Under the pieces are notes generated by a model. The model ran no database searches and was not told where the DNA came from. It saw only the letters and a program-made list of their open reading frames with translations. Shown piece after piece: positions 2,054 to 17,378 of a stretch of DNA of 64,000 nucleotides; within the stretch, counting starts at the first letter, position 1, and the number at the start of each line of letters is the position of its first letter. Source of the stretch: Escherichia coli (GTDB lineage: Bacteria; Pseudomonadota; Gammaproteobacteria; Enterobacterales; Enterobacteriaceae); the NCBI RefSeq assembly GCF_044647545.1, contig NZ_CP172818.1; one strand, written 5' to 3'. The position numbers and the translations under genes were made by a program.

Positions 2054-3852
2054 TAGTAGACATCTCGCTGATAACGGCGCTCTACGCGCAGCTCACTTAA
2101 AAATTCATCCGCCGCTTCGGTGTCCATGCCACCAAATTCGGCAATCACTTCCAGAAGTGCCTGTTCAACGTCTTTCGCCATGCGATTAGCGTCGCCGCAG
2201 ACATAAATGTGGGCACCGTCATTGATCCAGCGCCACAGCTCTGCGCCCTGTTCGCGCAGTTTGTCTTGTACATAAACTTTTTCTTTTTGGTCGCGCGACC
2301 AGGCAAGATCGATACGCGTCAGCACGCCCTCTTTGACGTAGCGCTGCCATTCCACCTGGTAGAGGAAATCTTCCGTAAAGTGCGGGTTGCCAAAGAACAA
2401 CCAGTTTTTCCCCGGCGCTTCGTCGGCGGCGCGTTGCTGCATAAAGGCGCGGAACGGCGCGATGCCGGTGCCTGGGCCAATCATAATGACCGGCGTTTCC
2501 GGGTTCGCCGGCAGACGGAAGTTGTCGTTGTGCTCGATAAAGACGCGAACTTCGCCCTCCTCTTCGACACGGTCAGCCAGGAAGCTGGATGCACCGCCCG
2601 CGCGAGCACGGCCTTCGATGTCATAACGCACCACACCCACGGTCACGTGGACTTCGCTTTCCACTTCCGCCTGCGAAGAGGCGATAGAGTAAAGACGCGG
2701 CGTCAGTGGACGTAACAGGCCAACCAGCGCTTCTGCATCCAGCTGTGCTGGCGCGAAACGCACCATATCAACAATCGGCGTGGTGGCCGCATAGTGCTGC
2801 AACTTCGCTTTATCGCCCACTAACGGCAGCAAGGATTCGCTGCGCGTCAAGGTGGCGTAATTCTCAACGATGTTGGCCGTGTTGACGGTCAGTTCAAAAT
2901 GCCACTGTAGCGCCTCATTCAGCGGCAGGGTTTTGCCCTCAACGGTGACAGGTTCATCACCTTTCAGCCACAGCAGTTCGACAAGTTCTTTCACCAGTGC
3001 CGGATCGTTCTGATACCAGACGCCCAGCGCGTCACCCGGCTGGTAACGCAGGCCCGAGTCACCTAAGTCAATTTCGATATGGCGAACGTCTTTTTCAGAG
3101 TTACGCCCGGTAATTTTCTGGTTAACAGAGAGGCTCGCCACCAGCGGCGCGTCTTTGCTGTACGGGCTGGTGTGGATTTCATTTACCGCGCCAGTAGCGA
3201 CGGATTGCGAAGGTGCCGCGACAGGCGCACGCGATTTAAGCGCATCAACCACGCGGGCGCGCCACTCGCTGGCAGCGGCCTGATATTCAACGTCGGCATC
3301 GACACGGTCGAGCAGGCGTTCACCGCCCTGTTCCGCCAGCTTGCTGTCAAAATCTTTCCCGGACTGGCAGAAAAATTCATAAGAGCTATCGCCGAGGCTA
3401 AACACGGCAAATGCGGTGTTTTCCAGCTTCGGCGCTTTTTTGGAGAACAGGAACTTATGCAGCGCGACGGCTTCTTCCGGCGGTTCCCCTTCCCCTTGCG
3501 TTGACGTCACCACGATGAGCAGTTTTTCGCTGGCGATTTGTTTGAATTTATAGTCGCCCGCGTTCACCAGCTTAACGTTCAGTTTTGCCGCCAATAAATC
3601 ATCGCGTAATGCTTCAGCAACCCGGCGCGCATTGCCGGTTTGCGAGGCGGAGATAATAGTTATACCCGGCATTTCTGCGGCGGGCGCTGGCGTCGCTGCA
3701 AGCGCAGCAGGCTGCTGGTTGAGCACGCCCCAGAAATAGCCAGAAACCCAGGCAAGCTGGGTAGGAGTTAAATCGGTCGTGGCCGCCTGAAGGCGTGCCA
3801 GTTGCTCCGGGTTCAACGGAAGCAACGCGGAAGGTGGGACCTGTGTCGTCAT
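2053..3852 (-). CDS. cysJ: sulfite reductase flavoprotein alpha subunit
   Basis: 599-aa ORF with flavodoxin-like and FAD/NADPH-binding regions; immediately upstream of cysI on the same strand. Confidence 0.95.
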
Positions 3853-4167
3853 GCGTCGTTATGTTCCAGTAAGCAAAGCTGTTTCTGCGCCCTGTCAGCG
3901 CCCATAAAACAGAAGAGAAGGTAAGGTTAACGGGGTGAACGGTGTGGATTAAAGACGGGATAGCGATAACTAATAACCAAATCGACTAACCTGTTTTAGC
4001 AATAGTCTTTAACAACAAAATAGATTAACCAACCCAATGAAAAACAAATGAATATTGCCCATCAATAAGATAAATCAGCGATTTTGCGCAACAAAGTCGT
4101 TTTAGATAATGCGAAAAAACAGCCTTTCCGGTACTCTACGGCGGTTTTATCGTCATGTAGAGAAATT

Positions 4168-4533
4168 ATGATGTCCACCACGTTATTTAAAGATTTCACC
4201 TTCGAAGCCGCTCACCGCTTGCCGCACGTCCCACAAGGGCATAAATGTGGTCGCCTGCACGGGCATTCCTTTATGGTGCGACTGGAAATTACCGGGGAAG
4301 TCGATCCGCATACGGGCTGGATTATCGATTTCGCTGAACTGAAAGCGGCGTTTAAGCCAACCTACGAGCGCCTCGATCACCATTATCTCAATGATATTCC
4401 AGGTCTGGAAAACCCAACCAGCGAGGTTTTAGCAAAATGGATTTGGGATCAGGTTAAACCGGTTGTTCCGCTGTTAAGTGCGGTTATGGTGAAAGAAACC
4501 TGCACCGCAGGTTGCATCTATCGCGGCGAATGA
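4168..4533 (+). CDS. queD: 6-carboxy-5,6,7,8-tetrahydropterin synthase
   Basis: ORF track 4084-4533; the known protein begins [18 protein letters not shown] at the ATG at 4168 (121 aa); the CxxxHGH motif is present. Confidence 0.85.
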
Positions 4534-4610
4534 TAAGAGTGTGTCGGCGGTCAATTTCCCTTAAGTAACGCTATGTTAGGGTGTTGTGTTCTGGATATTT
4601 GGGGCATGAC

Positions 4611-5882
4611 ATGGAAGACGACTGCGACATTATTATTATTGGTGCCGGTATTGCAGGCACCGCTTGCGCGTTACGCTGCGCGCGAGCGGGTTTATCCGTT
4701 TTGTTACTGGAACGCGCTGAAATCCCCGGCAGCAAAAATCTTTCCGGCGGGCGTTTATATACCCAGGCGCTCGCGGAACTCCTCCCACAATTTCATCTGA
4801 CCGCGCCTCTTGAACGACGCATCACTCACGAAAGCCTTTCCCTGTTAACGCCGGATGGCGCAACGACGTTTTCCAGCTTACAGCCCGGCGGTGAATCCTG
4901 GAGTGTATTACGTGCACGGTTCGATCCGTGGCTGGTTGCCGAAGCCGAAAAAGAAGGTGTCGAATGCATCCCCGGTGCGACGGTGGATGCGTTGTATGAA
5001 GAAAACGGCAGGGTGTGTGGTGTCATTTGTGGTGACGATATTCTCCGCGCCTGTTATGTGGTGCTGGCAGAAGGTGCCAACAGCGTCCTGGCTGAACGTC
5101 ACGGGTTAGTGACTCGTCCTGCTGGCGAAGCGATGGCGTTGGGGATCAAAGAAGTGCTGTCGCTGGAAACATCCGCTATTGAAGAACGTTTTCATCTGGA
5201 GAATAACGAAGGCGCAGCGTTGCTGTTCAGCGGCGGGATCTGTGATGACTTACCCGGCGGCGCATTTCTTTATACTAATCAACAAACGCTCTCGTTAGGG
5301 ATTGTTTGCCCGCTCTCTTCCCTTACGCAAAGTCGTGTTCCGGCAAGCGAGCTGCTGGCTCGCTTTAAAACGCATCCGGCAGTGCGCCCGCTTATCAAAA
5401 ACACGGAATCACTGGAGTATGGTGCGCATCTGGTGCCAGAAGGTGGCTTGCACAGTATGCCGGTGCAATACGCCGGTAACGGCTGGCTGCTGCTGGGCGA
5501 TGCGTTGCGCAGTTGCGTCAATACCGGAATTTCCGTGCGCGGCATGGATATGGCGCTAACTGGCGCGCAGGCGGCGGCACAAACGCTGATAAGCGCCTGC
5601 CAGCACCGCGAGCCGCAAAATCTGTTTGCGCTTTATCATCACAACGTAGAGCGCAGCCTGCTGTGGGATGTTCTACAACGTTATCAGCATGTTCCGGCGC
5701 TTTTGCAACGCCCTGGCTGGTATCGGGCGTGGCCTGCGTTAATGCAGGATATTTCCCGCGATTTATGGGATCAGGGTGATAAACCTGTTCCACCGCTGCG
5801 CCAGTTATTCTGGCGTCATTTACGTCGTCACGGCCTGTGGCATCTGGCGGGCGATGTTATCAGGAGTCTGCGATGTCTGTAG
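4611..5882 (+). CDS. ygcN: FAD-dependent oxidoreductase, FixC-like electron-transfer flavoprotein-quinone oxidoreductase
   Basis: ORF track 4581-5882 (alternative start); ATG at 4611 gives MEDDCDIIIIGAGIAGTACA with a Rossmann GxGxxG FAD-binding N-terminus. Confidence 0.85.
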   Translation: MEDDCDIIIIGAGIAGTACALRCARAGLSVLLLERAEIPGSKNLSGGRLYTQALAELLPQFHLTAPLERRITHESLSLLTPDGATTFSSLQPGGESWSVLRARFDPWLVAEAEKEGVECIPGATVDALYEENGRVCGVICGDDILRACYVVLAEGANSVLAERHGLVTRPAGEAMALGIKEVLSLETSAIEERFHLENNEGAALLFSGGICDDLPGGAFLYTNQQTLSLGIVCPLSSLTQSRVPASELLARFKTHPAVRPLIKNTESLEYGAHLVPEGGLHSMPVQYAGNGWLLLGDALRSCVNTGISVRGMDMALTGAQAAAQTLISACQHREPQNLFALYHHNVERSLLWDVLQRYQHVPALLQRPGWYRAWPALMQDISRDLWDQGDKPVPPLRQLFWRHLRRHGLWHLAGDVIRSLRCL

Positions 5883-6133
5883 CCCGTAATCTCTGGCGCG
5901 TTGCCGATGCGCCGCACATTGTTCCGGCTGACTCCGTTGAGCGTCAGACGGTACAATGGTTGATTAACGCTTGTCCGGCTGGTCTTTTTTCGCTCACACC
6001 AGAAGGTGACTTACGTATTGACTATCGCAGTTGCCTGGAGTGTGGCACCTGCCGTTTGCTGTGCGACGAAAAAACACTACAACAGTGGCGCTATCCACCT
6101 TCCGGATTCGGCATCACCTACCGTTTTGGATAA
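5873..6133 (+). CDS. ygcO: ferredoxin-like protein (FixX-like)
   Basis: ATG at 5873 gives MSVARNLWRV...CLECGTCRLLCDE with a cysteine cluster; overlaps the ygcN 3' end as in fixCX pairs. Confidence 0.8.
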   Translation: MSVARNLWRVADAPHIVPADSVERQTVQWLINACPAGLFSLTPEGDLRIDYRSCLECGTCRLLCDEKTLQQWRYPPSGFGITYRFG

Positions 6134-6149
6134 ATAATAAGGATAATTT

Positions 6150-6725
6150 ATGCCCCTCTTACACCTGCTCCGCCAGAATCCGGTGATTGCTGCCGTTAAA
6201 GATAATGCCAGCCTGCAACTGGCAATCGACTCTGAATGCCAGTTTATTTCCGTGTTGTACGGCAATATCTGCACCATCAGTCATATCGTCAAAAAGATTA
6301 AAAGTGCCGGGAAATATGCCTTTATTCATGTCGATTTGCTGGAAGGCGCATCGAACAAAGAAGTGGTGATTCAGTTTCTGAAACTGGTGACCGAGGCGGA
6401 CGGCATTATCAGCACGAAAGCATCGATGCTGAAAGCAGCAAGAGCGGAAGGTTTTTTCTGTATTCATCGCCTGTTTATTGTTGATTCGATTTCGTTTCAC
6501 AACATTGATAAGCAAGTTGCGCAATCGAATCCGGATTGTATTGAGATCCTGCCTGGCTGTATGCCCAAAGTGCTGGGCTGGGTGACGGAGAAAATCCGCC
6601 AACCGCTGATTGCTGGCGGGCTGGTGTGCGATGAAGAAGATGCGCGTAATGCGATTAACGCAGGTGTCGTGGCGCTTTCCACCACGAATACCGGGGTCTG
6701 GACGCTAGCGAAAAAATTGCTTTGA
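6150..6725 (+). CDS. ygcP: GlpP-like glycerol-3-phosphate-responsive antiterminator family protein
   Basis: 191-aa ORF; protein recognised as YgcP (GlpP family). Confidence 0.8.
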   Translation: MPLLHLLRQNPVIAAVKDNASLQLAIDSECQFISVLYGNICTISHIVKKIKSAGKYAFIHVDLLEGASNKEVVIQFLKLVTEADGIISTKASMLKAARAEGFFCIHRLFIVDSISFHNIDKQVAQSNPDCIEILPGCMPKVLGWVTEKIRQPLIAGGLVCDEEDARNAINAGVVALSTTNTGVWTLAKKLL

Positions 6726-6764
6726 CGGGATAATCGTAACGAATTGAATTTGTGTGATTTGTAG

Positions 6765-6830
6765 GCTGTACGCCACATCGGACATTCAGCGCCTGATGCG
6801 ACGCTTGACGCGTCTTATCAGGCCTACAAG
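6765..6830. repeat. REP element between ygcP and ygcQ
   Basis: gcctgatgcgacgcttgacgcgtcttatcaggcctac at 6791-6827 is a near-perfect REP consensus. Confidence 0.75.
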
Positions 6831-6871
6831 TCCCCAGGCCAGAACCGTAGGCAGGATCATCCAGCAACACG

Positions 6872-7732
6872 TTATTGGCAATCTGCGTGAATGTTTGTCA
6901 CCATTGCCTCCAGCACCACTTTCCAGTCATCAACCACGCCAACATCTGCCTGTGAAAATACCGCTGCGCTGGCGTCATGATTAATCGCCACCACAAACTT
7001 GCTATTGCATACGCCCGCCATTAACGCTGCTGCGCCAGAAGCGCCAACAACAATACACACCTCAGGTGCCAGCAGATGTCCGGAAATACCAATCACTTTT
7101 TCAGCATCAACGCCACCGTTCATCACTCGCGCCCGACTGTAGCCCACTTCGGCTCCCAGCTTTTCTGCCAGCATAGCGATTTCCTGGTTATCTGCCTCTC
7201 CGCCCTGCCCCACCACCAGCACCCGTCTGGCTTCAGCTAATGGGTCGCGGGTAACATTTTTCAGGTTTTCTAGGCTAACCAGCCAGTCGGGAAGCGCGCC
7301 GGGGACAATGTTCAGTTGCTGCATCCCAGAGGGCAACGTGGCGTTTTTATCTGCTCCCGCCTGACGCGCCAGCGAAAGGCATAGCGGGCGTTTGTCTGTT
7401 TGCAGCGTCGCCGTCAACGCATTTCCCCAGTGGGATTTGCGCACGCTTACGGTTGGAATATCTAACGAAGTCACCTGGCAGATGCTTGCACCATGTAAAC
7501 GCCAGGCCAGCCGGGTCGACAGTTCATCGCCAAACGTTCCCGGCGGAAAGAGAACAACGTCCGCAGGCGTTCGCTGCCACTGTTCCACCAACGCATCCAG
7601 CACCTGTTCCGCCACTACGGGCTGAGGTTCAATCTGCCAGTGCGCCAGGGTACAACCGCTGAAATCCTGCGCCGCCAGCCAGCTCGCTATTGCGGCATTC
7701 TCCTGATTTATTGTCACAATTGCGATATTCAT
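6872..7732 (-). CDS. ygcQ: electron transfer flavoprotein alpha subunit-like (FixB-like)
   Basis: ORF track 6872-7765; likely start at MNIAIVTINQENAAIASWL (286 aa). Confidence 0.8.
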   Translation of the reverse strand: MNIAIVTINQENAAIASWLAAQDFSGCTLAHWQIEPQPVVAEQVLDALVEQWQRTPADVVLFPPGTFGDELSTRLAWRLHGASICQVTSLDIPTVSVRKSHWGNALTATLQTDKRPLCLSLARQAGADKNATLPSGMQQLNIVPGALPDWLVSLENLKNVTRDPLAEARRVLVVGQGGEADNQEIAMLAEKLGAEVGYSRARVMNGGVDAEKVIGISGHLLAPEVCIVVGASGAAALMAGVCNSKFVVAINHDASAAVFSQADVGVVDDWKVVLEAMVTNIHADCQ

Positions 7733-8508
7733 GGCTGCATCCTTTGGCGTAAATAGTTCTGCCATAGCTTTTGCGCTTTTTCTGCTACCGTTTGCCCATC
7801 AATCAGCGTCGCTCCGCGTCGTTGCTCTGCTCTTGCCAGATGCAGACACTGCATCGCTGGCAATTCGACAGCAACAGTTTTACGGATAATTGCTGCTTTC
7901 CCCGCAGCCATTCGCTGGCGCATTCCCGGTACTGGCAAGGCCACTTCACCACACTGGCGCACGGCAATCACCGCAGGCAAGCGAACCCGGCAACAGCGCA
8001 GCCCGTTTTCAGTACGCTGTTCAAGGGTGATAAACGGCGCGTCGAGAGTAAAACGCTCCACCTGGGTGAAGCAGGGCCAGCCCAGCATTTCCGCCAGCAA
8101 AAATGGCGTTTGCCCATTCTGCCCTTCGCTGCTTTGGCAGCCGGTAATGATCAGATCCAGCGGATTCTGACGCTGCCATTCGGCAATATGGCGAGCGACA
8201 AATTCCGGCGCAAAGCGCAGATCTGCCACCGTCTCCAGCAATACAGCGTCCTCAAACCCAAGAGCCATGAGATAGCGCAGCCAGTGCAACGCCCGTTCAT
8301 CCCCCATGCTCAACGCGGTTAAAGACATCGGCGTACCGTTTTTTCTCTGCGCCAACAGCAGCGCGGCGGCAGCCTGTTCATCAGCACCGAGTAAACTTCG
8401 CAGTAGCGAAACATCTGGTCCAATATTACCCTGAGCCGCCGCCTGCCACTCTTTTTCCGCCAGCATTCCGGCATCCGGTTCGGCTTTAAACGCTAACAGA
8501 ATGTTCAT
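7729..8508 (-). CDS. ygcR: electron transfer flavoprotein beta subunit-like (FixA-like)
   Basis: ORF track 7729-8514; begins MNILLAFKAEPDAGM; overlaps the ygcQ start. Confidence 0.8.
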   Translation of the reverse strand: MNILLAFKAEPDAGMLAEKEWQAAAQGNIGPDVSLLRSLLGADEQAAAALLLAQRKNGTPMSLTALSMGDERALHWLRYLMALGFEDAVLLETVADLRFAPEFVARHIAEWQRQNPLDLIITGCQSSEGQNGQTPFLLAEMLGWPCFTQVERFTLDAPFITLEQRTENGLRCCRVRLPAVIAVRQCGEVALPVPGMRQRMAAGKAAIIRKTVAVELPAMQCLHLARAEQRRGATLIDGQTVAEKAQKLWQNYLRQRMQP

Positions 8509-9823
8509 TCGCACCTCCTACATTTCCCGCCGCCACCAGCGGGAGTGCTTTGGTTTCTGGTGCCCATAGCCAGGTCACAACAAAACCAACCAACAACACT
8601 GCCGCCAGGAGCAATAAGGTGGCTTGCATTCCCCACTGCGCCAGCACCCACGGCAGCAGGCCAGTACTTACCGCCGCCCCCAACCGACTCATGGCGGTGG
8701 CAAAACCGACGCCCAGCGAGCGAATGTCAGTAGGAAAACTTTCCGCAGGCAAAATGCCCACCAGATTACTGACTGCCGAAATGGTGGTGCTGAAGAGAAC
8801 AAAAAGCAGCAGCGTTAATGAACTGCCGGAAGGCAAACAGGCCATCACTACCAGCGTTGCCGCCAGCAGCAAAAAACTTCCCAGCAAAAACTTGCGATGT
8901 GCCAGCAGGTGCGTCAGAACTAATCCCAGCAGCGCGCCCACAATTAACAACGCATTAAGCATCAGGCTGGCGGTCAGCGCATCCTCCAGACCAATAGTCT
9001 GGGCGATGGTCGGCAGCCAGGTATAAATCACAAACCATGGGATTACGAGGCAGACAAAGAAGACGCTGTTAAACGCCGTGCGTCGCCAGTAGCGCGAAGA
9101 AAACAAGGTTTTGATGTGTTTATGGGTCGCCGCTGCCACTTCATCGCCCAGTAAAACATGTGGCCCCAAATAGCGATGCACAATAGCGTGAGCTTCAGCA
9201 AAACGTCCCTGGCGCAGTAGCCAGCGTGGCGATTCCGGCGTGCCCCAACGTAGCAGCGTAATCAGCAAGGCTGGTAACGCCGCTGATGCCAGCAGCCAGC
9301 GCCAGGCCTCCGGGTTTTCGGAAATAAAGTGATGTCCGGCAATACTTGCCAACACATAGCCTACGGTCCACACCACGCTGAATGCGCCCAGTAAAATACC
9401 GCGATGGCGGCGCGGGGAAAATTCAGCCAGCAAGGTGTGACCGACTGAGTAATCGCCTCCCAGACCAATGCCGATCAAAATGCGCAGCCCAATAAGATGC
9501 TCTGGCGTGGTGGCAAAAAATTGCAAGAACGAAGCGAGCGTAATCAGCAAAAAGCTGAAGGTGAAGATTTTTTGCCGACCAATATGGTCGGAGATCCATC
9601 CAAGAACCAGGCTGCCAAGAAACAAACCAAGGAGTGCTGAGCCGCCAATCATTCCCGCCATAAACGGCGTCAGTTGCATGGCTGGAGTAAGCTGAATAAT
9701 GGCGTAACCAATGACGCCGAGGACATAACCGTCGGTCAGGTGCGCACCGAAAGTGAGCGCAGCAATGCGGCAGTGAAAACGGTTAAGTGGTAAATCATCC
9801 ATTCGCACCGGTGAAGTGTTCAT
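8486..9823 (-). CDS. ygcS: MFS transporter (sugar-porter-like)
   Basis: ORF track 8486-9913; likely start at MNTSPVRMDDLPLNRF (ATG at 9823; the long form is an alternative); multiple hydrophobic TM segments. Confidence 0.8.
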   Translation of the reverse strand: MNTSPVRMDDLPLNRFHCRIAALTFGAHLTDGYVLGVIGYAIIQLTPAMQLTPFMAGMIGGSALLGLFLGSLVLGWISDHIGRQKIFTFSFLLITLASFLQFFATTPEHLIGLRILIGIGLGGDYSVGHTLLAEFSPRRHRGILLGAFSVVWTVGYVLASIAGHHFISENPEAWRWLLASAALPALLITLLRWGTPESPRWLLRQGRFAEAHAIVHRYLGPHVLLGDEVAAATHKHIKTLFSSRYWRRTAFNSVFFVCLVIPWFVIYTWLPTIAQTIGLEDALTASLMLNALLIVGALLGLVLTHLLAHRKFLLGSFLLLAATLVVMACLPSGSSLTLLLFVLFSTTISAVSNLVGILPAESFPTDIRSLGVGFATAMSRLGAAVSTGLLPWVLAQWGMQATLLLLAAVLLVGFVVTWLWAPETKALPLVAAGNVGGANEHSVSV

Positions 9824-9916
9824 CTTTACCCCTTCATTGTCCGGTAATAAGAACGGCTTCTCGCCTGAGAAGCCGAAAAGGCAACGCCCCGTCATCGCGG
9901 AACGCTGCCTCACACA

Positions 9917-11371
9917 TTATTTTTCAATCGGATAGATAGTACCCGTATTCATAATGCCGTTAGGATCGAACTGTTTTTTCAGCCCTTCCAGCAACGTCCA
10001 CGCGCTGCCGTGTTCCAGTTTGCTCCAGTGAACGCGATGTTTACCAATACCGTGGTGGTGCACCATCGAACCGCCGAGACGAATGGTTTCTTCGCAGATG
10101 ATTTTGTTGAGCGGATTGTGGTACTTGTCGATTTCCTCTTCCGGCTTACAGTCAACGACGTTGTAGTCGTAGACGAAGTACATGTTGGTACCGTTCTGAT
10201 AGCTATGAGAGGAGTGACCGCCCAGCATGGTGATGTCGTCGGCGTGCGGGAACTCGGTACGAATACGGTTAATAACGCTTTCGTAGATTTCGTGGATGCA
10301 GCTCCAGCAGCCGGACACTTCGGTGGTAAAGCCCATGTTGCCGGTTTTGAGGATCTGCACACGTTCAGCGGCCACTTTATCCGGCCCCCAGTTCAGGTGA
10401 TTAAACCAGGTTTCGATCAGCTTGCTGTCCACGCGCTGGCATTGCGGGTAACGTGCCACGATTTCAGCAATCCCTTCGCCCGTCGCCTTCGCAATGCGAG
10501 GGTTACCTTCAGCCATAAAGATCAGCACGCATTTACCATCGGCAAAATGGGTGAAGTGTTGGGTGCCATCTTCAACGTCATATAAACGAGCGATCGACGG
10601 ACGATACCCTTCCACCATGATTTCACGCAGGATGTTGAAGCCGGTTTTCATATCTTCCAGGATATAGCCGTAGAAGAGGTTGTTTTCCGGGGTGAATTTA
10701 AAGATTTTCACTGTTACTTCAGTGATATAGCACAGTGCACCTTCGTTGCCGATGATGATGTGACGAATGTCCGGGCCAGCCGCGCGGCGTGGCACGTTTT
10801 TAATACGTGTGACGGTACCATCTGCCAGTACCGCTTCCAGACCAACGACCATATCTTCGATTGCGCCGTAGAGTGTGGAGAACTGCCCGATACTGCGGGT
10901 TGCTACCAGGCCGCCCATCTGCGCCAGCGGTTTTGATTGCGGTGAATGCCCCGTGGTGTAACCTTTTTCACGCAACGCGTTTTCCAGCACCTCCAGCGGA
11001 ACGCCACATTGCGCCGTGGCCTGCATATTCTCAATATCAATATTAATGATTTGATTCATGGCAGAGCCGTCGAGCACCACCGAGTTTTCCACAACGGTTT
11101 CCAGCCCGCCTTCAGTGGCGGAAGCACCGGTACGCGGCACACCGTTAATTTTGTGCGCATTCATAAAATTCAGCACACGGGACACTTGTTCTGTGGAACC
11201 GAGTTTTACGACCGCTGCCGGAATCGGCAAAGTATAAATGCCATGAATATCCGGAAATTTGCGAAAACGGTCAATACTGTTTTTCTTTAATACTGTTTCA
11301 TCGGTAATTACGCGATCTGCACCAACAATTTCCTTTAGCTGGTCGACAATCGCTGCGCGAGATAAAGACAT
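9917..11371 (-). CDS. ygcU: FAD-linked oxidase (GlcD / alkyl-DHAP-synthase-like)
   Basis: 484-aa ORF; FAD-binding PCMH-type N-terminal region; recognised as YgcU. Confidence 0.85.
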   Translation of the reverse strand: MSLSRAAIVDQLKEIVGADRVITDETVLKKNSIDRFRKFPDIHGIYTLPIPAAVVKLGSTEQVSRVLNFMNAHKINGVPRTGASATEGGLETVVENSVVLDGSAMNQIINIDIENMQATAQCGVPLEVLENALREKGYTTGHSPQSKPLAQMGGLVATRSIGQFSTLYGAIEDMVVGLEAVLADGTVTRIKNVPRRAAGPDIRHIIIGNEGALCYITEVTVKIFKFTPENNLFYGYILEDMKTGFNILREIMVEGYRPSIARLYDVEDGTQHFTHFADGKCVLIFMAEGNPRIAKATGEGIAEIVARYPQCQRVDSKLIETWFNHLNWGPDKVAAERVQILKTGNMGFTTEVSGCWSCIHEIYESVINRIRTEFPHADDITMLGGHSSHSYQNGTNMYFVYDYNVVDCKPEEEIDKYHNPLNKIICEETIRLGGSMVHHHGIGKHRVHWSKLEHGSAWTLLEGLKKQFDPNGIMNTGTIYPIEK

Positions 11372-11440
11372 AGTAATTCCTTCCTGATAATAAAAATGGA
11401 ATAATCATTAATAAGAGAAAACAGAAACCACCGTTATGGA

Positions 11441-12226
11441 TTAGCGCACTAAATAACCGCCATCGACCACTAATAAATGCCCGTTAACATAATTTGAAGC
11501 CGGACTTGCGAGGAAGACGGCTGCGCCCATTAAATCCTGTGTATCGCCCCAACGGTTTGCCGGAATATGATCAAGAACGCGCTGATTAGTTTCAGGATTA
11601 CTGCGTGTCGCCAGCGTAATATCTGTTGCATAATAACCTGGAGCAATACCATTTACCTGAATATTATATTGACCTAGTTCATCACAATAAGCTTTGGTGA
11701 ATCCAGCAAGAGCATGTTTAGTTGCAGAATATGCAGGTGACCATTGTCCACCTAAGTAAGAGAACAATGAACAGATATTAATAATTTTACCGCTTTTCTG
11801 CGGGATCATAATTTTTGCCGCTTCGTAGCTTAACTCGAATGCGGCGGTCAGGTTCACATCAATCATCGGGTCCCAGTCGGCACGACCGAAGTCCAGCACC
11901 TTATTCAGCTTACAAATACCGGCATTGTTAACCAGAATATCTACGGTACCGAAGCGCTCACAGCAGGCAGCGATAATCTTCTGCGGCGCGCCTTCTGCGG
12001 TGATATCCACCTGCATAAAATCAACTTCGACACCCTGTTTTTCAATCATTTCCTTTGTTTCGCCGTTATCTTTGACGAAGCTAGGGATAAAGACATTTGC
12101 GCCAGCTTTGGCCAACGCCATGGCAAATGCCTGGCCTAAACCGCTATTCCCGCCGGTAACAATTGCTGTTTTACCTTTCAGGGAGAAAAAATCCATTGAG
12201 AACGCATTGAGAGATTCGATTGACAT
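11441..12226 (-). CDS. ygcW: short-chain dehydrogenase/reductase (SDR)
   Basis: ORF track 11441-12301; likely start MSIESLNAF...; TGGNSGLG cofactor motif and Y..K catalytic pair. Confidence 0.85.
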   Translation of the reverse strand: MSIESLNAFSMDFFSLKGKTAIVTGGNSGLGQAFAMALAKAGANVFIPSFVKDNGETKEMIEKQGVEVDFMQVDITAEGAPQKIIAACCERFGTVDILVNNAGICKLNKVLDFGRADWDPMIDVNLTAAFELSYEAAKIMIPQKSGKIINICSLFSYLGGQWSPAYSATKHALAGFTKAYCDELGQYNIQVNGIAPGYYATDITLATRSNPETNQRVLDHIPANRWGDTQDLMGAAVFLASPASNYVNGHLLVVDGGYLVR

Positions 12227-12544
12227 AGTTAGCTCCAATTTCCGTAAGGCAAAAAAAAAGAAAGGTAACTTCCCCCGCGAGAGGGAAGTTACCTTTCTCA
12301 TTATCTCTGGTAACTGGAGATAATTTTTAGCATAAGGGCATAAGCGCTAATGTGATCGTAATCACAGTGTGATATTCGTATTATCAAATAATTTTAAAAA
12401 GCAGAAGCGTGACTACTCTCACACAACACCACTGCTTTCCATGTTATTTCTTATTGCAATTACTAGAGACCTGAGAAAAGTAATCCACCTGAAAGGGCGG
12501 CTTACTTTTCTCTTTTTTTTGTCTATTACAAATGGGAATACGAT

Positions 12545-13822
12545 ATGCAACACAACTCATATCGCCGTTGGATAACCCTCGCGATAATTAGTTTTAGCGG
12601 CGGCGTTAGTTTCGACCTGGCTTATTTACGTTATATTTATCAAATTCCCATGGCGAAATTTATGGGATTCAGCAATACCGAGATAGGTTTAATAATGAGT
12701 ACCTTTGGTATTGCAGCTATTATTCTTTATGCGCCCAGTGGCGTTATTGCCGATAAATTCTCACATCGCAAAATGATTACTTCCGCGATGATCATTACCG
12801 GATTACTGGGTCTGTTAATGGCAACTTATCCACCGCTGTGGGTAATGCTCTGTATTCAGGTCGCCTTTGCGATAACGACGATTTTAATGCTGTGGTCGGT
12901 GTCGATTAAAGCCGCATCGTTGCTGGGCGATCATAGCGAGCAAGGGAAAATTATGGGCTGGATGGAAGGGCTGCGCGGCGTCGGTGTAATGTCGCTGGCG
13001 GTGTTTACCATGTGGGTCTTTTCTCGCTTTGCACCGGATGACAGCGCCAGCCTGAAAACGGTCATTATCATCTATAGTGTGGTTTACATCTTGTTGGGGA
13101 TTCTGTGCTGGTTTTTTGTTAGCGATAACAACAACCTGCGCAGTGCCAATAACGAAGAAAAACAATCATTCCAGCTTAGCGACATCCTGGCTGTTTTGCG
13201 CATCAGCACCACCTGGTATTGCAGCATGGTGATTTTTGGCGTCTTCACCATCTACGCCATTCTGAGTTACTCCACCAACTATCTCACCGAAATGTACGGC
13301 ATGTCGCTGGTGGCGGCGAGCTACATGGGGATTGTGATCAACAAAATATTCCGCGCGCTGTGTGGTCCACTTGGCGGCATTATCACCACCTACAGTAAAG
13401 TGAAATCCCCTACCCGCGTAATTCAAATCCTTTCCATCATCGGCCTGCTGGCACTGACTGCCCTGCTTGTTACCAACTCTAACCCGCAATCGGTCGCTAT
13501 GGGGATTGGCCTGATTTTACTACTGGGATTCACCTGCTACGCCTCACGTGGACTGTACTGGGCCTGCCCCGGCGAAGCGAGAACACCGTCTTACATTATG
13601 GGCACCACGGTAGGTATTTGTTCGGTGATTGGATTCCTGCCGGATGTCTTCGTTTACCCGATTATCGGCCACTGGCAAGACACCCTGCCCGCTGCAGAAG
13701 CCTACCGCAACATGTGGCTAATGGGCATGGCCGCGCTTGCCATGGTGATCATCTTTACCTTTTTGCTGTTCCAAAAAATTCGTACTGCTGATAGCGCCCC
13801 CGCAATGGCTAGCAGCAAGTAA
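12545..13822 (+). CDS. yqcE: MFS transporter
   Basis: 425-aa ORF, very hydrophobic with about 12 predicted TM segments. Confidence 0.85.
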   Translation: MQHNSYRRWITLAIISFSGGVSFDLAYLRYIYQIPMAKFMGFSNTEIGLIMSTFGIAAIILYAPSGVIADKFSHRKMITSAMIITGLLGLLMATYPPLWVMLCIQVAFAITTILMLWSVSIKAASLLGDHSEQGKIMGWMEGLRGVGVMSLAVFTMWVFSRFAPDDSASLKTVIIIYSVVYILLGILCWFFVSDNNNLRSANNEEKQSFQLSDILAVLRISTTWYCSMVIFGVFTIYAILSYSTNYLTEMYGMSLVAASYMGIVINKIFRALCGPLGGIITTYSKVKSPTRVIQILSIIGLLALTALLVTNSNPQSVAMGIGLILLLGFTCYASRGLYWACPGEARTPSYIMGTTVGICSVIGFLPDVFVYPIIGHWQDTLPAAEAYRNMWLMGMAALAMVIIFTFLLFQKIRTADSAPAMASSK

Positions 13823-13848
13823 GCCAGGAAAATTACAGGAGAAAAATC

Positions 13849-15327
13849 ATGTCGAAAAAATACATCATAGGGATTGATGGCGGAAGTCAGAGCACAAAAG
13901 TGGTGATGTACGATCTGGAAGGTAATGTGGTTTGCGAAGGCAAAGGCTTATTGCAGCCGATGCACACGCCAGATGCCGATACCGCAGAACATCCTGACGA
14001 CGATTTATGGGCATCATTATGTTTTGCCGGTCACGATTTGATGAGTCAGTTTGCCGGAAATAAAGAAGATATTGTCGGTATTGGTCTGGGATCCATCCGT
14101 TGCTGCCGTGCGTTATTGAAAGCCGATGGCACGCCAGCTGCGCCGTTGATTAGCTGGCAGGATGCACGCGTTACACGCCCTTACGAACATACGAATCCTG
14201 ACGTGGCATATGTCACCTCTTTTTCAGGTTATCTGACGCATCGCTTAACCGGCGAGTTTAAAGACAATATCGCCAACTATTTTGGTCAGTGGCCGGTGGA
14301 TTATAAGACCTGGGCATGGAGTGAAGATGCCGCAGTCATGGAGAAGTTTAATATCCCCCGTCATATGCTGTTTGATGTGCAAATGCCGGGCACTGTTCTT
14401 GGGCATATCACTCCTCAAGCCGCGCTGGCGACACATTTCCCAGCTGGGCTGCCGGTTGTTTGTACCACCAGTGATAAACCGGTAGAAGCTCTGGGAGCCG
14501 GATTACTGGATGATGAAACGGCGGTGATTTCTCTTGGCACCTACATCGCGCTGATGATGAACGGTAAAGCACTGCCGAAAGATCCGGTGGCGTACTGGCC
14601 GATTATGTCTTCTATTCCGCAAACATTGCTGTATGAAGGTTACGGTATTCGCAAAGGCATGTGGACGGTGAGCTGGCTGCGCGACATGTTAGGCGAGTCG
14701 TTAATTCAGGATGCCAAAGCACAGGATCTTTCACCGGAAGATTTGCTCAACAAAAAAGCGTCTTGTGTGCCGCCTGGCTGTAATGGTCTGATGACGGTGC
14801 TGGACTGGCTGACCAATCCGTGGGAACCATACAAACGCGGGATTATGATCGGCTTTGATTCCAGCATGGATTACGCATGGATATATCGTTCGATACTGGA
14901 AAGCGTGGCGCTGACGCTGAAGAACAATTACGACAATATGTGTAATGAAATGAATCACTTTGCAAAGCATGTGATCATTACTGGCGGCGGTTCGAACAGC
15001 GATCTGTTTATGCAGATTTTTGCCGACGTGTTCAACCTTCCGGCACGCCGTAACGCCATTAATGGTTGTGCAAGTCTGGGGGCAGCGATCAATACGGCGG
15101 TAGGTCTGGGGCTATACCCGGATTACGCAACGGCTGTCGACAAAATGGTTCGCGTGAAAGATATCTTTATGCCTGTTGAGAGCAACGCCAAACGCTACGA
15201 CGCGATGAATAAAGGCATTTTCAAAGACCTAACCAAGCACACTGATGTGATCCTGAAAAAATCGTATGAAGTGATGCATGGTGAGCTGGGGAATGAAGAT
15301 TCGATCCAGAGCTGGTCGAATGCGTAA
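13849..15327 (+). CDS. ygcE: FGGY-family carbohydrate kinase
   Basis: 492-aa ORF; N-terminal IGIDGGSQSTKVV sugar-kinase motif. Confidence 0.85.
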   Translation: MSKKYIIGIDGGSQSTKVVMYDLEGNVVCEGKGLLQPMHTPDADTAEHPDDDLWASLCFAGHDLMSQFAGNKEDIVGIGLGSIRCCRALLKADGTPAAPLISWQDARVTRPYEHTNPDVAYVTSFSGYLTHRLTGEFKDNIANYFGQWPVDYKTWAWSEDAAVMEKFNIPRHMLFDVQMPGTVLGHITPQAALATHFPAGLPVVCTTSDKPVEALGAGLLDDETAVISLGTYIALMMNGKALPKDPVAYWPIMSSIPQTLLYEGYGIRKGMWTVSWLRDMLGESLIQDAKAQDLSPEDLLNKKASCVPPGCNGLMTVLDWLTNPWEPYKRGIMIGFDSSMDYAWIYRSILESVALTLKNNYDNMCNEMNHFAKHVIITGGGSNSDLFMQIFADVFNLPARRNAINGCASLGAAINTAVGLGLYPDYATAVDKMVRVKDIFMPVESNAKRYDAMNKGIFKDLTKHTDVILKKSYEVMHGELGNEDSIQSWSNA

Positions 15328-15373
15328 GTGAGGAAGACCGGGCGGGAAACTGCCCGGCCTGAACATACCTGAA

Positions 15374-15510
15374 TGGTTATCCCCGCTGACGCGGGGAACA
15401 TAAGTTCGACAACTTAAAAAATGATAACAAGTCCGGTTTATCCCCGCTGATGCAGGGAACATAATAAAAACTTTAACTAGTTCGTTTATCCCTGTTGTTA
15501 CAAGGAATAT
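15374..15510 (-). CRISPR. Decayed CRISPR remnant: three degenerate type I-E repeats
   Basis: tggttatccccgctgacgcggggaacat (15374-15401), cggtttatccccgctgatgcagggaacat (15434-15462) and tcgtttatccctgttgttacaaggaatat (15482-15510) are mutated copies of the downstream repeat. Confidence 0.7.
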
Positions 15511-15964
15511 TAACTACACTCGATGTCTTTAGAATAAAAGACAATACGAATCGCACTTTATCAATTTTCACTTAAAGTATGAACTGGATATCTTTATTCA
15601 TAAGAACTATTCATCAACAGCGTATAGAGGCGGTTATGTAAAACCACTCATTAGCCTCAAAACAAAGACAAACTTCCAGATTTATTACTTAATCAATGAA
15701 TAACAAGCTTAAAAAATACACTGTTATTCTAAAGAAAAAATTAACAGGCATTAATTAATATTAAAAAAAATAATATATTAAAATTTCTTAACGGTTTAAG
15801 GATTATACAAATAACACTTTGATTAAATTTGATTTTTTGTATCGATAATTGTGAACTTATCTGGCATGGAGAACTATTTTGAACATGAGGTGTTATGTGG
15901 ATATGTTGCTTATTACAAGTACAGCTAATATAAAAACTTGAGAAAGAGATAACGGGTTATATGG
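15511..15964. other. AT-rich non-coding spacer between the CRISPR remnant and the intact array (possible fossil leader)
   Basis: No credible ORFs; strongly AT-rich; sits on the leader side of the degenerate repeats by analogy with the intact array. Confidence 0.4.
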
Positions 15965-16367
15965 TGGTTCATCCCCGCTGGCGCGGGGAACACGTCTTTT
16001 TGACCGGCCGGTAAATCGTCTGCCTGCGGTTTATCCCCGCTGGCGCGGGGAACACAAACCATTCTCGCAATCAAGGACTATTCCTAGACGGTTTATCCCC
16101 GCTGGCGCGGGGAACACGGTCGCAGGGAATACAAAGCCGTGCATCCTGCTCGGTTTATCCCCGCTGGCGCGGGGAACACTGGCTCTGCAACAGCAGCACT
16201 ATGACCCCGTCGGTTTATCCCCGCTGGCGCGGGGAACACGAAAAGCTTATGATCGTTAATGCCGCAAACACCGGTTTATCCCCGCTGGCGCGGGGAACAC
16301 ATTACACCTATGTGCGAGCGCCCGGTTTTTGCCGCTAGCGGTTTATCCCCGCTGGCGCGGGGAACAC
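15965..16367 (-). CRISPR. Type I-E CRISPR array, 7 repeats and 6 spacers, no adjacent cas genes
   Basis: Repeat cggtttatccccgctggcgcggggaacac (29 bp) at 16027, 16089, 16151, 16211, 16272 and 16339, plus a degenerate terminal copy at about 15965; spacers 31-38 bp; orientation inferred from the AT-rich leader on the high-coordinate side. Confidence 0.95.
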
Positions 16368-16600
16368 TCTAAACATAACCTATTATTAATTAATGATTTT
16401 TTAAGCCAGTCACAATCTACCAACTTTATAGTATCACACAAACAACACATCCATTATGTTAAAGAGCACTTAATCCATTGATTAAAAAGGTAAATATTTA
16501 AAATAACTCTATACAAACTAAAATCTACCAAACTTTACCGCAATAATTTTCACTCCAGCGAAAAATTAACGCCACAGAATTTGTAGAGAATGATAATGAT
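16368..16600 (-). promoter_or_regulatory. Putative CRISPR leader (AT-rich, promoter-containing)
   Basis: AT-rich ORF-free stretch directly abutting the best-conserved repeat; the degenerate repeat lies at the opposite end of the array. Confidence 0.6.
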
Positions 16601-16706
16601 TAGTTCAGGATGGGCAAGATGGATGAGTTTTCAGAGGCGACAAACAATATAAATGAGTAGAAGTCTTTACAGGTTCCACCCATTTATAACGCTTATAAAT
16701 GTTTAA

Positions 16707-17378
16707 TCAGGCAATATTTAGATATTTATGTGTTTGCATCGACAAACGCCAATTACGCGCAATGCAGGTTTCAATGCACAAACGTGTGGCATCATCCTTT
16801 TGGCTAATCGGCTGCAGTGCAATGACTCGCGGTTTATCATCGGTCAGCGTTGCCAGTAGTTCATCCAGTGCTTCAATATCACGTACGCGCCCCACTGGAT
16901 GCTTGATTTCGTTGGCTCGCTCCAGTGCCTGTGACAACACTTCATAGCCGCCGCGCATGTTCAACTTTGGTGATACGGTAACCCAGGTATTCGGTGTGCA
17001 GCGTACCTCATGAGTACCACTGGTTTCGATCTGGCAGCTAAAACCGTTCTTTTCGAGCAGATCAGTCAGTGGCAGCAAATCATGAATGCAAGGCTCACCA
17101 CCCGTAATCACCACATGCCGTGCGGTGTATCCCTGGCGACCAATGACAGCCAGCAAATCTTCACTGCTCGCAGCCCCCCACTTATCACTCTCTTTGGTCT
17201 TCGCCAGAATGCTGAAAAGGGAGACTTCCCGATCCTCAAGCTTTTCCCAGGTGTGTTTGGTGTCGCACCAGGCACAGCCAACCGGGCATCCCTGTAAACG
17301 AATAAAAATGGCGGGGACGCCGGTAAAGTAACCCTCACCTTGCAGGGTCTGGAACATCTCGTTAATCGGGTACTGCAT
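16707..17378 (-). CDS. queE: 7-carboxy-7-deazaguanine synthase (radical SAM)
   Basis: 223-aa ORF; CxxxCxxC-like radical-SAM motif (QGCPVGCAWCDTKH) near the N-terminus. Confidence 0.9.
   Translation of the reverse strand: MQYPINEMFQTLQGEGYFTGVPAIFIRLQGCPVGCAWCDTKHTWEKLEDREVSLFSILAKTKESDKWGAASSEDLLAVIGRQGYTARHVVITGGEPCIHDLLPLTDLLEKNGFSCQIETSGTHEVRCTPNTWVTVSPKLNMRGGYEVLSQALERANEIKHPVGRVRDIEALDELLATLTDDKPRVIALQPISQKDDATRLCIETCIARNWRLSMQTHKYLNIA

Follow-up and report, generated by a model that had tools for sequence, protein, structure and literature searches.

In the BglG/SacY/LicT family of antiterminators, the protein stabilises a weak antiterminator (RAT) hairpin overlapping the terminator 5' arm in the leader of a sugar-catabolic operon; the Escherichia coli bgl operon carries more than one such terminator. 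HutP, TRAP and PyrR are small metabolite-activated proteins whose binding to repeated short leader motifs decides between terminator and antiterminator, in favour of termination for TRAP and PyrR; HutP is described as recognising XAG-rich regions (PMC2425495). In Bacillus subtilis, GlpP together with glycerol-3-phosphate overcomes terminators in the 5' untranslated regions (5' UTRs) of glpD, glpFK and glpTQ; a glp 5' UTR is portable, and deletion of glpP abolishes induction (PMC9604022). Terminators in the glpF and glpT leaders have been located by Term-seq (PMC10573289). Here we describe a GlpP-family gene, ygcP, in a 64-kb stretch of the E. coli chromosome (the window, meaning the whole stretch of DNA that was analysed) and two leader elements, located 5' of ygcW and yqcE, that are most likely controlled by its product, judging from sequence and gene linkage.

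We propose that YgcP is probably the trans-acting regulator of a two-operon attenuation system operating in the ygcW and yqcE leaders. The best-supported description of the ygc system is a GlpP-type antitermination with an RNA motif and a regulon of its own, operating in a Gram-negative host. The gene and its putative targets are as follows.

6150-6725, plus strand: ygcP coding sequence, 191 amino acids, GlpP-family (PF04309) putative effector-dependent RNA-binding antiterminator (open reading frame, annotation, Pfam, relatives in the PDB, invariant residues)
6872-12226, minus strand: ygcW-ygcU-ygcS-ygcR-ygcQ, putative regulated operon 3' of the ygcW leader (annotation, Pfam, conserved ygcP linkage)
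12545-15327, plus strand: yqcE-ygcE, putative regulated operon 3' of the yqcE leader (annotation, Pfam, conserved linkage)

Terminators in the ygcW and yqcE leaders

The ygcW and yqcE operons each begin with a leader of ~67 nt that forms a strong intrinsic terminator just 5' of the start codon, and the two copies of this element share the divergent ygcW/yqcE intergenic region. The ygcW hairpin (12299-12258) is the strongest site of the terminator scan, is followed by nine U residues and points into ygcW; the yqcE copy is a second, diverged element recovered by motif search. Both elements end 25 nt short of the start codon of their gene (ATG at 12226 for ygcW and at 12545 for yqcE). The parts of the intergenic region are listed below.

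12251-12318, minus strand: ygcW leader element, whole, with 5' box, GAGA-rich segment, intrinsic terminator and U9 tract (terminator scan, fold, covariance model R1, Term-seq)
12309-12315, minus strand: 5' box AGUUACC of the ygcW leader, upstream strand of the antiterminator helix (complementarity, nascent fold, covariation)
12258-12299, minus strand: terminator hairpin of the ygcW leader, 19-bp stem with UCGC loop (terminator scan, fold)
12351-12366, no strand assigned: perfect CRP site TGTGAttacgaTCACA between the two leaders (sequence, published footprint and prediction)
12455-12520, plus strand: yqcE leader element, whole (motif search, model R1, fold, Term-seq)
12458-12464, plus strand: 5' box AAUUACU of the yqcE leader (sequence)
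12479-12484, plus strand: its partner AGUAAU (sequence)
12473-12512, plus strand: terminator stem of the yqcE leader (sequence, fold)
12513-12520, plus strand: U8 tract of the yqcE leader (sequence)

The common layout comprises a 5' box (AGUUACC or AAUUACU), AGAG, 3-6 variable nucleotides, GAGAAA(G/A)GUAAY as the terminator 5' arm, a variable apical stem, the 3' arm and the U tract; the consensus reads AGUUACUAGAG-N3-6-GAGAAAAGUAAC, and its loop holds two GAGA repeats 3-5 nt apart. A covariance model (R1), built from 112 distinct element copies of the species survey described below, matches the ygcW element with 73.3 bits (E 1.2e-14) and the yqcE element with 74.2 bits (E 7.3e-15). These are exactly the two true copies in the window; the other matches to the model were rejected as reverse-complement echoes of the same two elements. 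BLAST of E. coli genomes with a 66-nt element query returned one place per genome, a search too insensitive to recover even the sister copy, and no annotated feature lies beneath that match in the E. coli RefSeq records. Rfam 15 gave no match at E<=1 on the leader elements in window positions 3800-16000 and placed no family on the elements of the Halobacillus, Vibrio and Clostridia metagenome-assembled genome (MAG) loci. The cis elements are thus uncatalogued, with no annotation in E. coli RefSeq and no Rfam family.

The 5' box AGUUACC of the ygcW leader is complementary to GGUAACU (12293-12287) in the terminator 5' arm, a segment that is common to terminator and antiterminator. In general terms, AGUUACY, the first 7 nt of the conserved element, can pair with RGUAACU inside that arm. 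Covariation was computed on 111 distinct element sequences, in which 95.1% of the cells of the antiterminator helix are paired, against 15-55% when the partner is slid by 1-3 columns. At antiterminator pair 5-35, 80 sequences have G-C, 31 have A-U and none has a mismatch; at pair 10-30, 82 have U-A and 20 have C-G; and pair 8-32 shows one G-C swap. The terminator lower stem has 96.2% of its cells paired and 6 pairs with double changes. The A-U state of pair 5-35 is found in the yqcE leaders of Enterobacteriaceae, in several Firmicute copies and in spirochaete copies, and therefore arose more than once. As U35 is unpaired in the yqcE-type terminator, the covariation of this pair belongs to the antiterminator itself.

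Folding energies indicate which of the two structures prevails. The terminator hairpins fold at -31 kcal/mol in ygcW (z -6.3 against shuffles) and -20.7 kcal/mol in yqcE (z -3.7). As long as the 3' arm has yet to emerge, the nascent RNA has its energy minimum in the antiterminator hairpin (-6.7 kcal/mol for ygcW and -1.4 kcal/mol for yqcE). The full leaders adopt the terminator fold at -34.2 and -22.3 kcal/mol, respectively, as compared to -15.6 and -7.3 kcal/mol when the antiterminator is enforced. With the antiterminator 15-19 kcal/mol weaker than the full terminator, termination is the default, and holding the antiterminator requires a factor.

A published Term-seq survey of strain K-12 (Adams et al. 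2021, PMC7815308) contains two "orphan" 3' ends whose printed sequences are identical to the two elements. One, 2900311 (minus strand), has a read score of 40640, lies 38 nt 5' of ygcW and has an intrinsic-terminator score of 15.8; the other, 2900556 (plus strand), has a read score of 1557, lies 36 nt 5' of yqcE and has an intrinsic-terminator score of 11.4; both carry the Rho-dependence call "No" (PMC7815308). The printed sequences run 10 nt past the 3' ends, which therefore map to window positions 12264 and 12509. A motif search of the K-12 Term-seq tables found these two as the sole 3' ends carrying the motif; they go undiscussed in the text of the paper, where they are listed as unannotated orphans. 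Transcripts of E. coli grown without inducer thus end at the leader terminators, in agreement with the premature termination within cluster transcripts that a preliminary description of this locus had expected. The score of the ygcW leader end is comparable to those of secG and rpsG, whose entries are printed alongside. This high score, obtained in LB medium, implies that a stable RNA accumulates, ~55 nt in length (12264-12318, minus strand) or as much as ~65 nt if untrimmed.

The CRP site (12366-12351) lies ~41 nt 5' of the inferred ygcW transcript start and is common to the divergent ygcW and yqcE promoters; TGTGA-N6-TCACA is conserved in the Enterobacterales leaders. A Footprint-seq preprint reports in vitro binding of CRP with a dissociation constant of ~1.7 nM and assigns the site to ygcW/yqcE (PMC12871828), and the same target had been predicted earlier (PMC1794230).

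An ATG at 12301 (minus strand), in frame with ygcW, opens a 286-amino-acid reading frame across the terminator hairpin; it was considered and rejected as the start of a leader peptide or of an extended ygcW. This ATG is not conserved, AAGAGAAAAG or GAGAGAAAAG standing in its place in many species, and the annotated ygcW start at 12226 has its own GGAG, so the upstream ATG is probably unused.

The preliminary description had predicted a terminator/antiterminator structure in the leader of a neighbouring ygc transcript, possibly that of ygcN or ygcQ. Such structures do exist, but they sit 5' of ygcW and yqcE, ~5.5 kb from ygcP, and not at the sites it had suggested. The queD-ygcN leader (4534-4610) was ruled out as an attenuator: the spacer 4534-4613 folds no better than shuffles (z -0.9), offers no terminator-like site and has no model R1 match. 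The second site, 7766-7800, is coding sequence inside the ygcR/ygcQ overlap, because ygcQ starts at 7732 and not at 7765. The third, the ygcP-ygcQ spacer, is a 3' region and no leader, since the two genes are convergent. It holds a palindrome of the REP/BIME type (repetitive extragenic palindrome/bacterial interspersed mosaic element), GCCTGATGCGACGC...GCGTCTTATCAGGCCTACA at 6751-6824, with a below-threshold match to Rfam naRNA4 (31.9 bits, E 0.015, where the gathering score is 59.5).

YgcP and its linkage with the leader element

The ATG-to-stop open reading frame at 6150-6725 (plus strand) is an exact match to the annotated ygcP coding sequence; its Shine-Dalgarno sequence AAGGA lies 8 nt 5' of the start, and 16 nt separate the start from the ygcO stop. 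Window positions 4000-9000 are 100% identical to several RefSeq genomes and derive from the E. coli chromosome, and at least 80% of this 5-kb query was found in 5091 of 5426 complete E. coli genomes. In the records that are 100% identical over the region, the product is named "glycerol-3-phosphate responsive antiterminator" (WP_001130256.1), so that the family assignment is already present in RefSeq. No NCBIfam model of the GlpP family matched YgcP, which gave weak unrelated matches only, and the RefSeq name therefore rests on general homology.

Residues 12-184 of YgcP align with positions 1-173 of the 173-position PF04309 G3P_antiterm profile (E 2.5e-62, 209.8 bits against a cut-off of 27). 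Sequence searches also matched two GlpP-family proteins of solved structure, 3KTS from Listeria (E 4.6e-28, residues 11-184) and 1VKF from Thermotoga (E 5.8e-15, residues 13-186); matches of this strength are not explained by chance. Identity to the canonical GlpPs is ~30%, and YgcP keeps all residues that are invariant across 8 YgcP-type and 10 canonical sequences, namely K55, D62, G66, G85, I86, S88, R107, F109, D112, P128, E132, P135, G136, G157, L158 and G172. To our knowledge, the RNA-binding residues of GlpP have never been mapped experimentally. Pfam gives PF04309 alone, with neither a CAT RNA-binding domain nor a PRD domain. By these sequence criteria YgcP is a bona fide GlpP-family protein, and the preliminary description was right to place such a gene inside the ygc cluster, where the order is queD/ygcNOP/ygcQRSUW/yqcE-ygcE. 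The other genes of the cluster are as follows.

4171-4533, plus strand: queD (annotation)
4611-5882, plus strand: ygcN, FixC-like or electron transfer flavoprotein (ETF)-quinone oxidoreductase (ETF-QO)-like (annotation, Pfam)
5873-6133, plus strand: ygcO, ferredoxin-like (annotation)
6872-7732, minus strand: ygcQ, ETF alpha (annotation, Pfam)
7729-8508, minus strand: ygcR, ETF beta (annotation, Pfam)
8486-9895, minus strand: ygcS, major facilitator superfamily (MFS) transporter (annotation, Pfam)
9917-11371, minus strand: ygcU, flavin adenine dinucleotide (FAD)-linked oxidase (annotation, Pfam)
11441-12226, minus strand: ygcW, short-chain dehydrogenase/reductase (SDR) (annotation, Pfam)
12545-13822, plus strand: yqcE, MFS transporter (annotation, Pfam)
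13849-15327, plus strand: ygcE, FGGY kinase (annotation, Pfam)

The genes ygcN and ygcO (4611-6133, plus strand) abut ygcP in the same orientation and probably form one ygcNOP transcription unit with it; neither the model R1 search nor the terminator scan of 4534-4613 found a leader element 5' of this unit. The published Term-seq data place a Rho-dependent 3' end 84 nt into ygcN (K-12 2892741, plus strand, window ~4694; its Rho score is 3.67, with the flag "Yes") and another region of Rho termination at K-12 2893051. Early termination by Rho could restrain ygcNOP expression, ygcP included. A type I-E CRISPR-Cas system flanks the ygc cluster in the RefSeq annotation of an identical genome (L001), with cas3 and casA beyond cysHIJ on one side and the CRISPR array on the other (window ~15965-17215, and 5' of window position 1 in L001). 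Strong orphan 3' ends inside the array appear among the Term-seq entries.

The linkage between gene and element was surveyed in 80 species loci that had been selected solely for a YgcP relative at 49-99% identity. In these loci ygcP is accompanied by ygcW, ygcU and ygcE and usually by ETF genes, in Enterobacterales, Vibrionaceae, Clostridia, Halobacillus, Gracilibacillus, Thalassobacillus, Sporomusa, spirochaete MAGs, an Anaerolineaceae MAG and Saccharopolyspora; the survey spans five phyla. Nearly all loci have a hairpin and U tract 5' of ygcW with a sequence almost as in E. coli, and in the alignment of 112 sequences the core of UUxC (5' box), GxG and GAG...G is invariant. Model R1 gave 144 matches across the 80 loci, with at least one match in 75; four of the five loci without an element are contigs that end before ygcW. 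Downstream of the elements in these 75 loci are ygcW, yqcE, ygcE, ygcU or transporter genes, and no glp genes; YgcP would therefore belong to a paralogous system and not be a glp regulator.

The number of copies varies with the lineage. Enterobacterales have two, one for each of the ygcW and yqcE operons, and Clostridia have up to three, including an internal ygcE-ygcU copy and divergent pairs before BCCT transporter genes. The internal copy (L060, L062, L066, L067, L071 and L078) has a longer apical stem and forms a second checkpoint within one operon. An element precedes ygcP itself in Vibrio hannami and in one Clostridia MAG, an arrangement suggestive of autoregulation elsewhere. The ygcW-yqcE region of Limnobaculum eriocheiris is only ~130 nt long and lacks both 5' boxes; its single terminator-like hairpin (13889-13948 of locus L036) has A9 on one side and T9 on the other, can thus be read on either strand and looks like a collapsed two-element arrangement. 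Between E. coli and the loci of Clostridia, Bacilli and Sporomusa (L060-L081), the proteins are unusually similar, at 53-62% (YgcP), 66-80% (YgcW) and 56-73% (YgcU), and the RNA element is almost identical, which suggests that the whole module moved between phyla together with its RNA switch.

The reverse test, a scan of metagenome contigs with a 20-base pattern, proceeded from the element to the genes. Among the best 80 of 119 matching stretches, 67 are full elements, 64 of them in ygc context and three (L091, L102 and L119) on contigs with no detectable ygc gene. The other 13 of the 80 were discarded as chance matches, this being about the number expected for 20 specified bases. The contig of another full element, L103, also carries ygcE, ygcU and ETF genes. 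On the contigs L103, L091, L102 and L119, an MttB-family gene follows the element in two cases and an OpuAC-type ABC transporter gene in one. Taking these together with Firmicute loci (L066, L067, L069, L075 and L078; metagenome contigs L103, L119 and L091), the element precedes BCCT, OpuAC-type glycine-betaine ABC or MttB-family methyltransferase genes, the MttB genes only on two separate metagenome contigs. This context outside the Enterobacterales hints at a pathway substrate that may be related to quaternary amines. E. coli has the MFS transporters YqcE and YgcS instead of BCCT or OpuAC.

Relation to the canonical GlpP leaders

Eight leaders beside canonical glpP genes were compared, from five genera (Priestia, Lysinibacillus, Bacillus sp., Paenibacillus and Lentibacillus). 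All eight begin with AAGUUAAUA, a few nucleotides after the -10 box, and 6-10 nt later comes GGAGAAUnGGAGA, which runs into the terminator 5' arm. Set beside the ygc boxes AGUUACUAGAG...GAGAAAAGUAAC, the canonical pair AAGUUAAUA...GGAGAAUnGGAGA is visibly related, so paralogous proteins would appear to adjoin related RNA boxes. Rfam holds no family for the canonical glpP-adjacent leaders either, and the Listeria glpP locus has no glp genes nearby.

The ygc system resembles that of B. subtilis in several further respects: the protein belongs to the same family, PF04309, and keeps its invariant core residues; a promoter is followed by a 5'-proximal box, a GAGA-rich segment abutting an intrinsic terminator and then the gene; several operons of one regulon have a copy each; and the FGGY kinase of the ygc regulon could make a phosphorylated inducer. 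It differs in the genes regulated, which encode an SDR, an FAD-oxidase with ETF, MFS transporters and a different FGGY kinase and are not glpFK, glpD or glpTQ, and in its hosts, which include the Gram-negative Enterobacterales and Vibrionaceae. Moreover, the ygc 5' box pairs with the terminator 5' arm in a covarying helix, for which no consistent equivalent was seen in the eight canonical leaders. The different FGGY kinase, the SDR, the FAD-oxidase/ETF genes and the BCCT/OpuAC/MttB context in other phyla suggest a different phosphorylated effector, which is thus probably other than glycerol-3-phosphate.

As in the BglG/SacY/LicT systems, the antiterminator of the proposed ygc switch overlaps the terminator 5' arm. 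YgcP is unrelated to those proteins, with PF04309 in place of CAT and PRD domains, and is presumed to respond to a small-molecule effector, unlike the BglG family with its control by phosphotransferase system phosphorylation. A metabolite-activated small protein acting on repeated short leader motifs, as proposed for YgcP, also recalls HutP, TRAP and PyrR, although folds and motifs differ and antitermination is proposed here, unlike the termination promoted by TRAP and PyrR; oligomeric binding of YgcP is a conjecture.

Proposed antitermination by YgcP and alternative explanations

We propose the following sequence of events. CRP supplies promoter activity at the divergent promoters, and transcripts stop in the ygcW and yqcE leaders; these two steps are demonstrated or strongly supported. 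Effector-loaded YgcP would then bind the 5' box and the GAGA-rich loop. Such binding would lock the antiterminator hairpin and allow RNA polymerase to read through into ygcWUSRQ and yqcE-ygcE, YgcP thereby supplying substrate specificity at the elongation step. By analogy with the parts that glycerol-3-phosphate and GlpK play for GlpP, the effector would most likely be the phosphorylated compound made by the FGGY kinase YgcE.

Several points weigh against this proposal. RNA binding by YgcP is predicted from co-occurrence and homology, the effector and the readthrough are predictions as well, and in E. coli ygcP lies 5.5 kb away from the elements, in a different transcription unit that has no element. 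Our model R1 search of E. coli covered the 64-kb window rather than the whole genome. The Term-seq ends at 12264 and 12509 lie 4-6 nt inside the 3' arms and not in the U tract; our reading is that exonucleases trimmed the A/U-rich lower stem once termination had occurred, with processing as a possible alternative. Both ends were called in one of the three growth-condition tables only; this appears to be the table for LB at an optical density of 0.4, and that the glucose minimal table lacks them would be consistent with catabolite control. Serratia microhaemolytica (L049), the sole genuine exception of the survey, has a ygcP homologue of 70% identity with no element or ygc genes within 18 kb. 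Finally, with the ygc model the leaders of canonical GlpP reach only 10-15 bits, so the likeness of the boxes comes from inspection of eight leaders.

Four other explanations were weighed, all of them less likely than antitermination by YgcP. The leaders could be real attenuators controlled by another RNA-binding protein, a small RNA or the translation of a short leader reading frame, with YgcP regulating, for example, the E. coli glp genes. The case for this draws on the putative status of YgcP as the regulator, on its RefSeq name, which implies a response to glycerol-3-phosphate, and on the frame that the ATG at 12301 opens through the ygcW terminator into ygcW. We consider it unlikely: across phyla, no regulator-like gene other than ygcP is conserved with the element, that ATG is not conserved, no other K-12 Term-seq 3' end carries the motif, and the E. 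coli glp regulon is under the GlpR repressor. It is quite unlikely that YgcP binds the leaders mainly to stabilise or process the mRNA, as the title of Glatz et al. indicates for B. subtilis GlpP besides its antitermination at glpD. The Term-seq ends inside the stems do mean that exonucleolytic trimming or processing occurs; however, the covarying alternative helix competes directly with the terminator 5' arm, which is the signature of an antitermination switch, and both hairpins have a U8-9 tract with Rho-independent 3' ends and intrinsic-terminator scores of 11-16.

A protein-independent riboswitch, in which the 5' box and GAGA-rich loop bind a metabolite that stabilises the antiterminator while YgcP, as a phosphate-binding TIM (triosephosphate isomerase) barrel, has an enzymatic or accessory role, would account for an element sequence as strongly conserved across five phyla as aptamers are and for the separation of ygcP from the elements in E. 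coli, and would sit well with RNA binding by YgcP being a prediction. It is nonetheless very unlikely, as the conserved part outside the terminator is ~25 nt, a single hairpin with an open loop that offers a ligand pocket little space; element and ygcP occur in close association; none of the riboswitch families in Rfam matches; and the paralogous GlpP system has related RNA boxes and genetically requires the protein (PMC9604022). We regard as extremely improbable that the conserved sequence is a DNA operator for a repressor, or that the hairpins are constitutive insulators or repeat elements without a switch. The boxes do lie just 3' of promoters, a frequent operator position, and the hairpins are near-perfect palindromes, but the U tracts, which are strand-specific, point towards the downstream gene in every case; the substitutions maintain RNA pairing (G-U wobbles, G-C to A-U swaps) and not DNA sequence; Clostridia also have copies within operons, between ygcE and ygcU; and no DNA-binding regulator is conserved in the cluster.

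We found no paper in a literature search that links the elements to YgcP or gives ygcP or the ygc cluster a function. By a narrow balance we favour the view that the ygc leader is an uncatalogued protein-binding RNA family of at least five phyla, that with YgcP it constitutes the first GlpP-type antitermination switch described in Gram-negatives, that it gates an uncharacterised ETF-linked catabolic pathway and that the effector is a new phosphorylated metabolite made by YgcE. As far as we know, RNA recognition by GlpP is unresolved even for the B. subtilis protein, and the ygc element provides a defined RNA of ~45 nt for studying how a TIM-barrel protein of this family recognises its target. 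It is also a candidate family for RNA catalogues and a compact terminator/antiterminator pair, of a kind that is already a portable tool in B. subtilis (PMC9604022). For E. coli, the proposed link between the elements, the Term-seq ends and YgcP gives a testable regulatory circuit for a cryptic, nearly universal gene cluster, in which a leader readthrough reporter could reveal the inducer and hence the substrate of the pathway.

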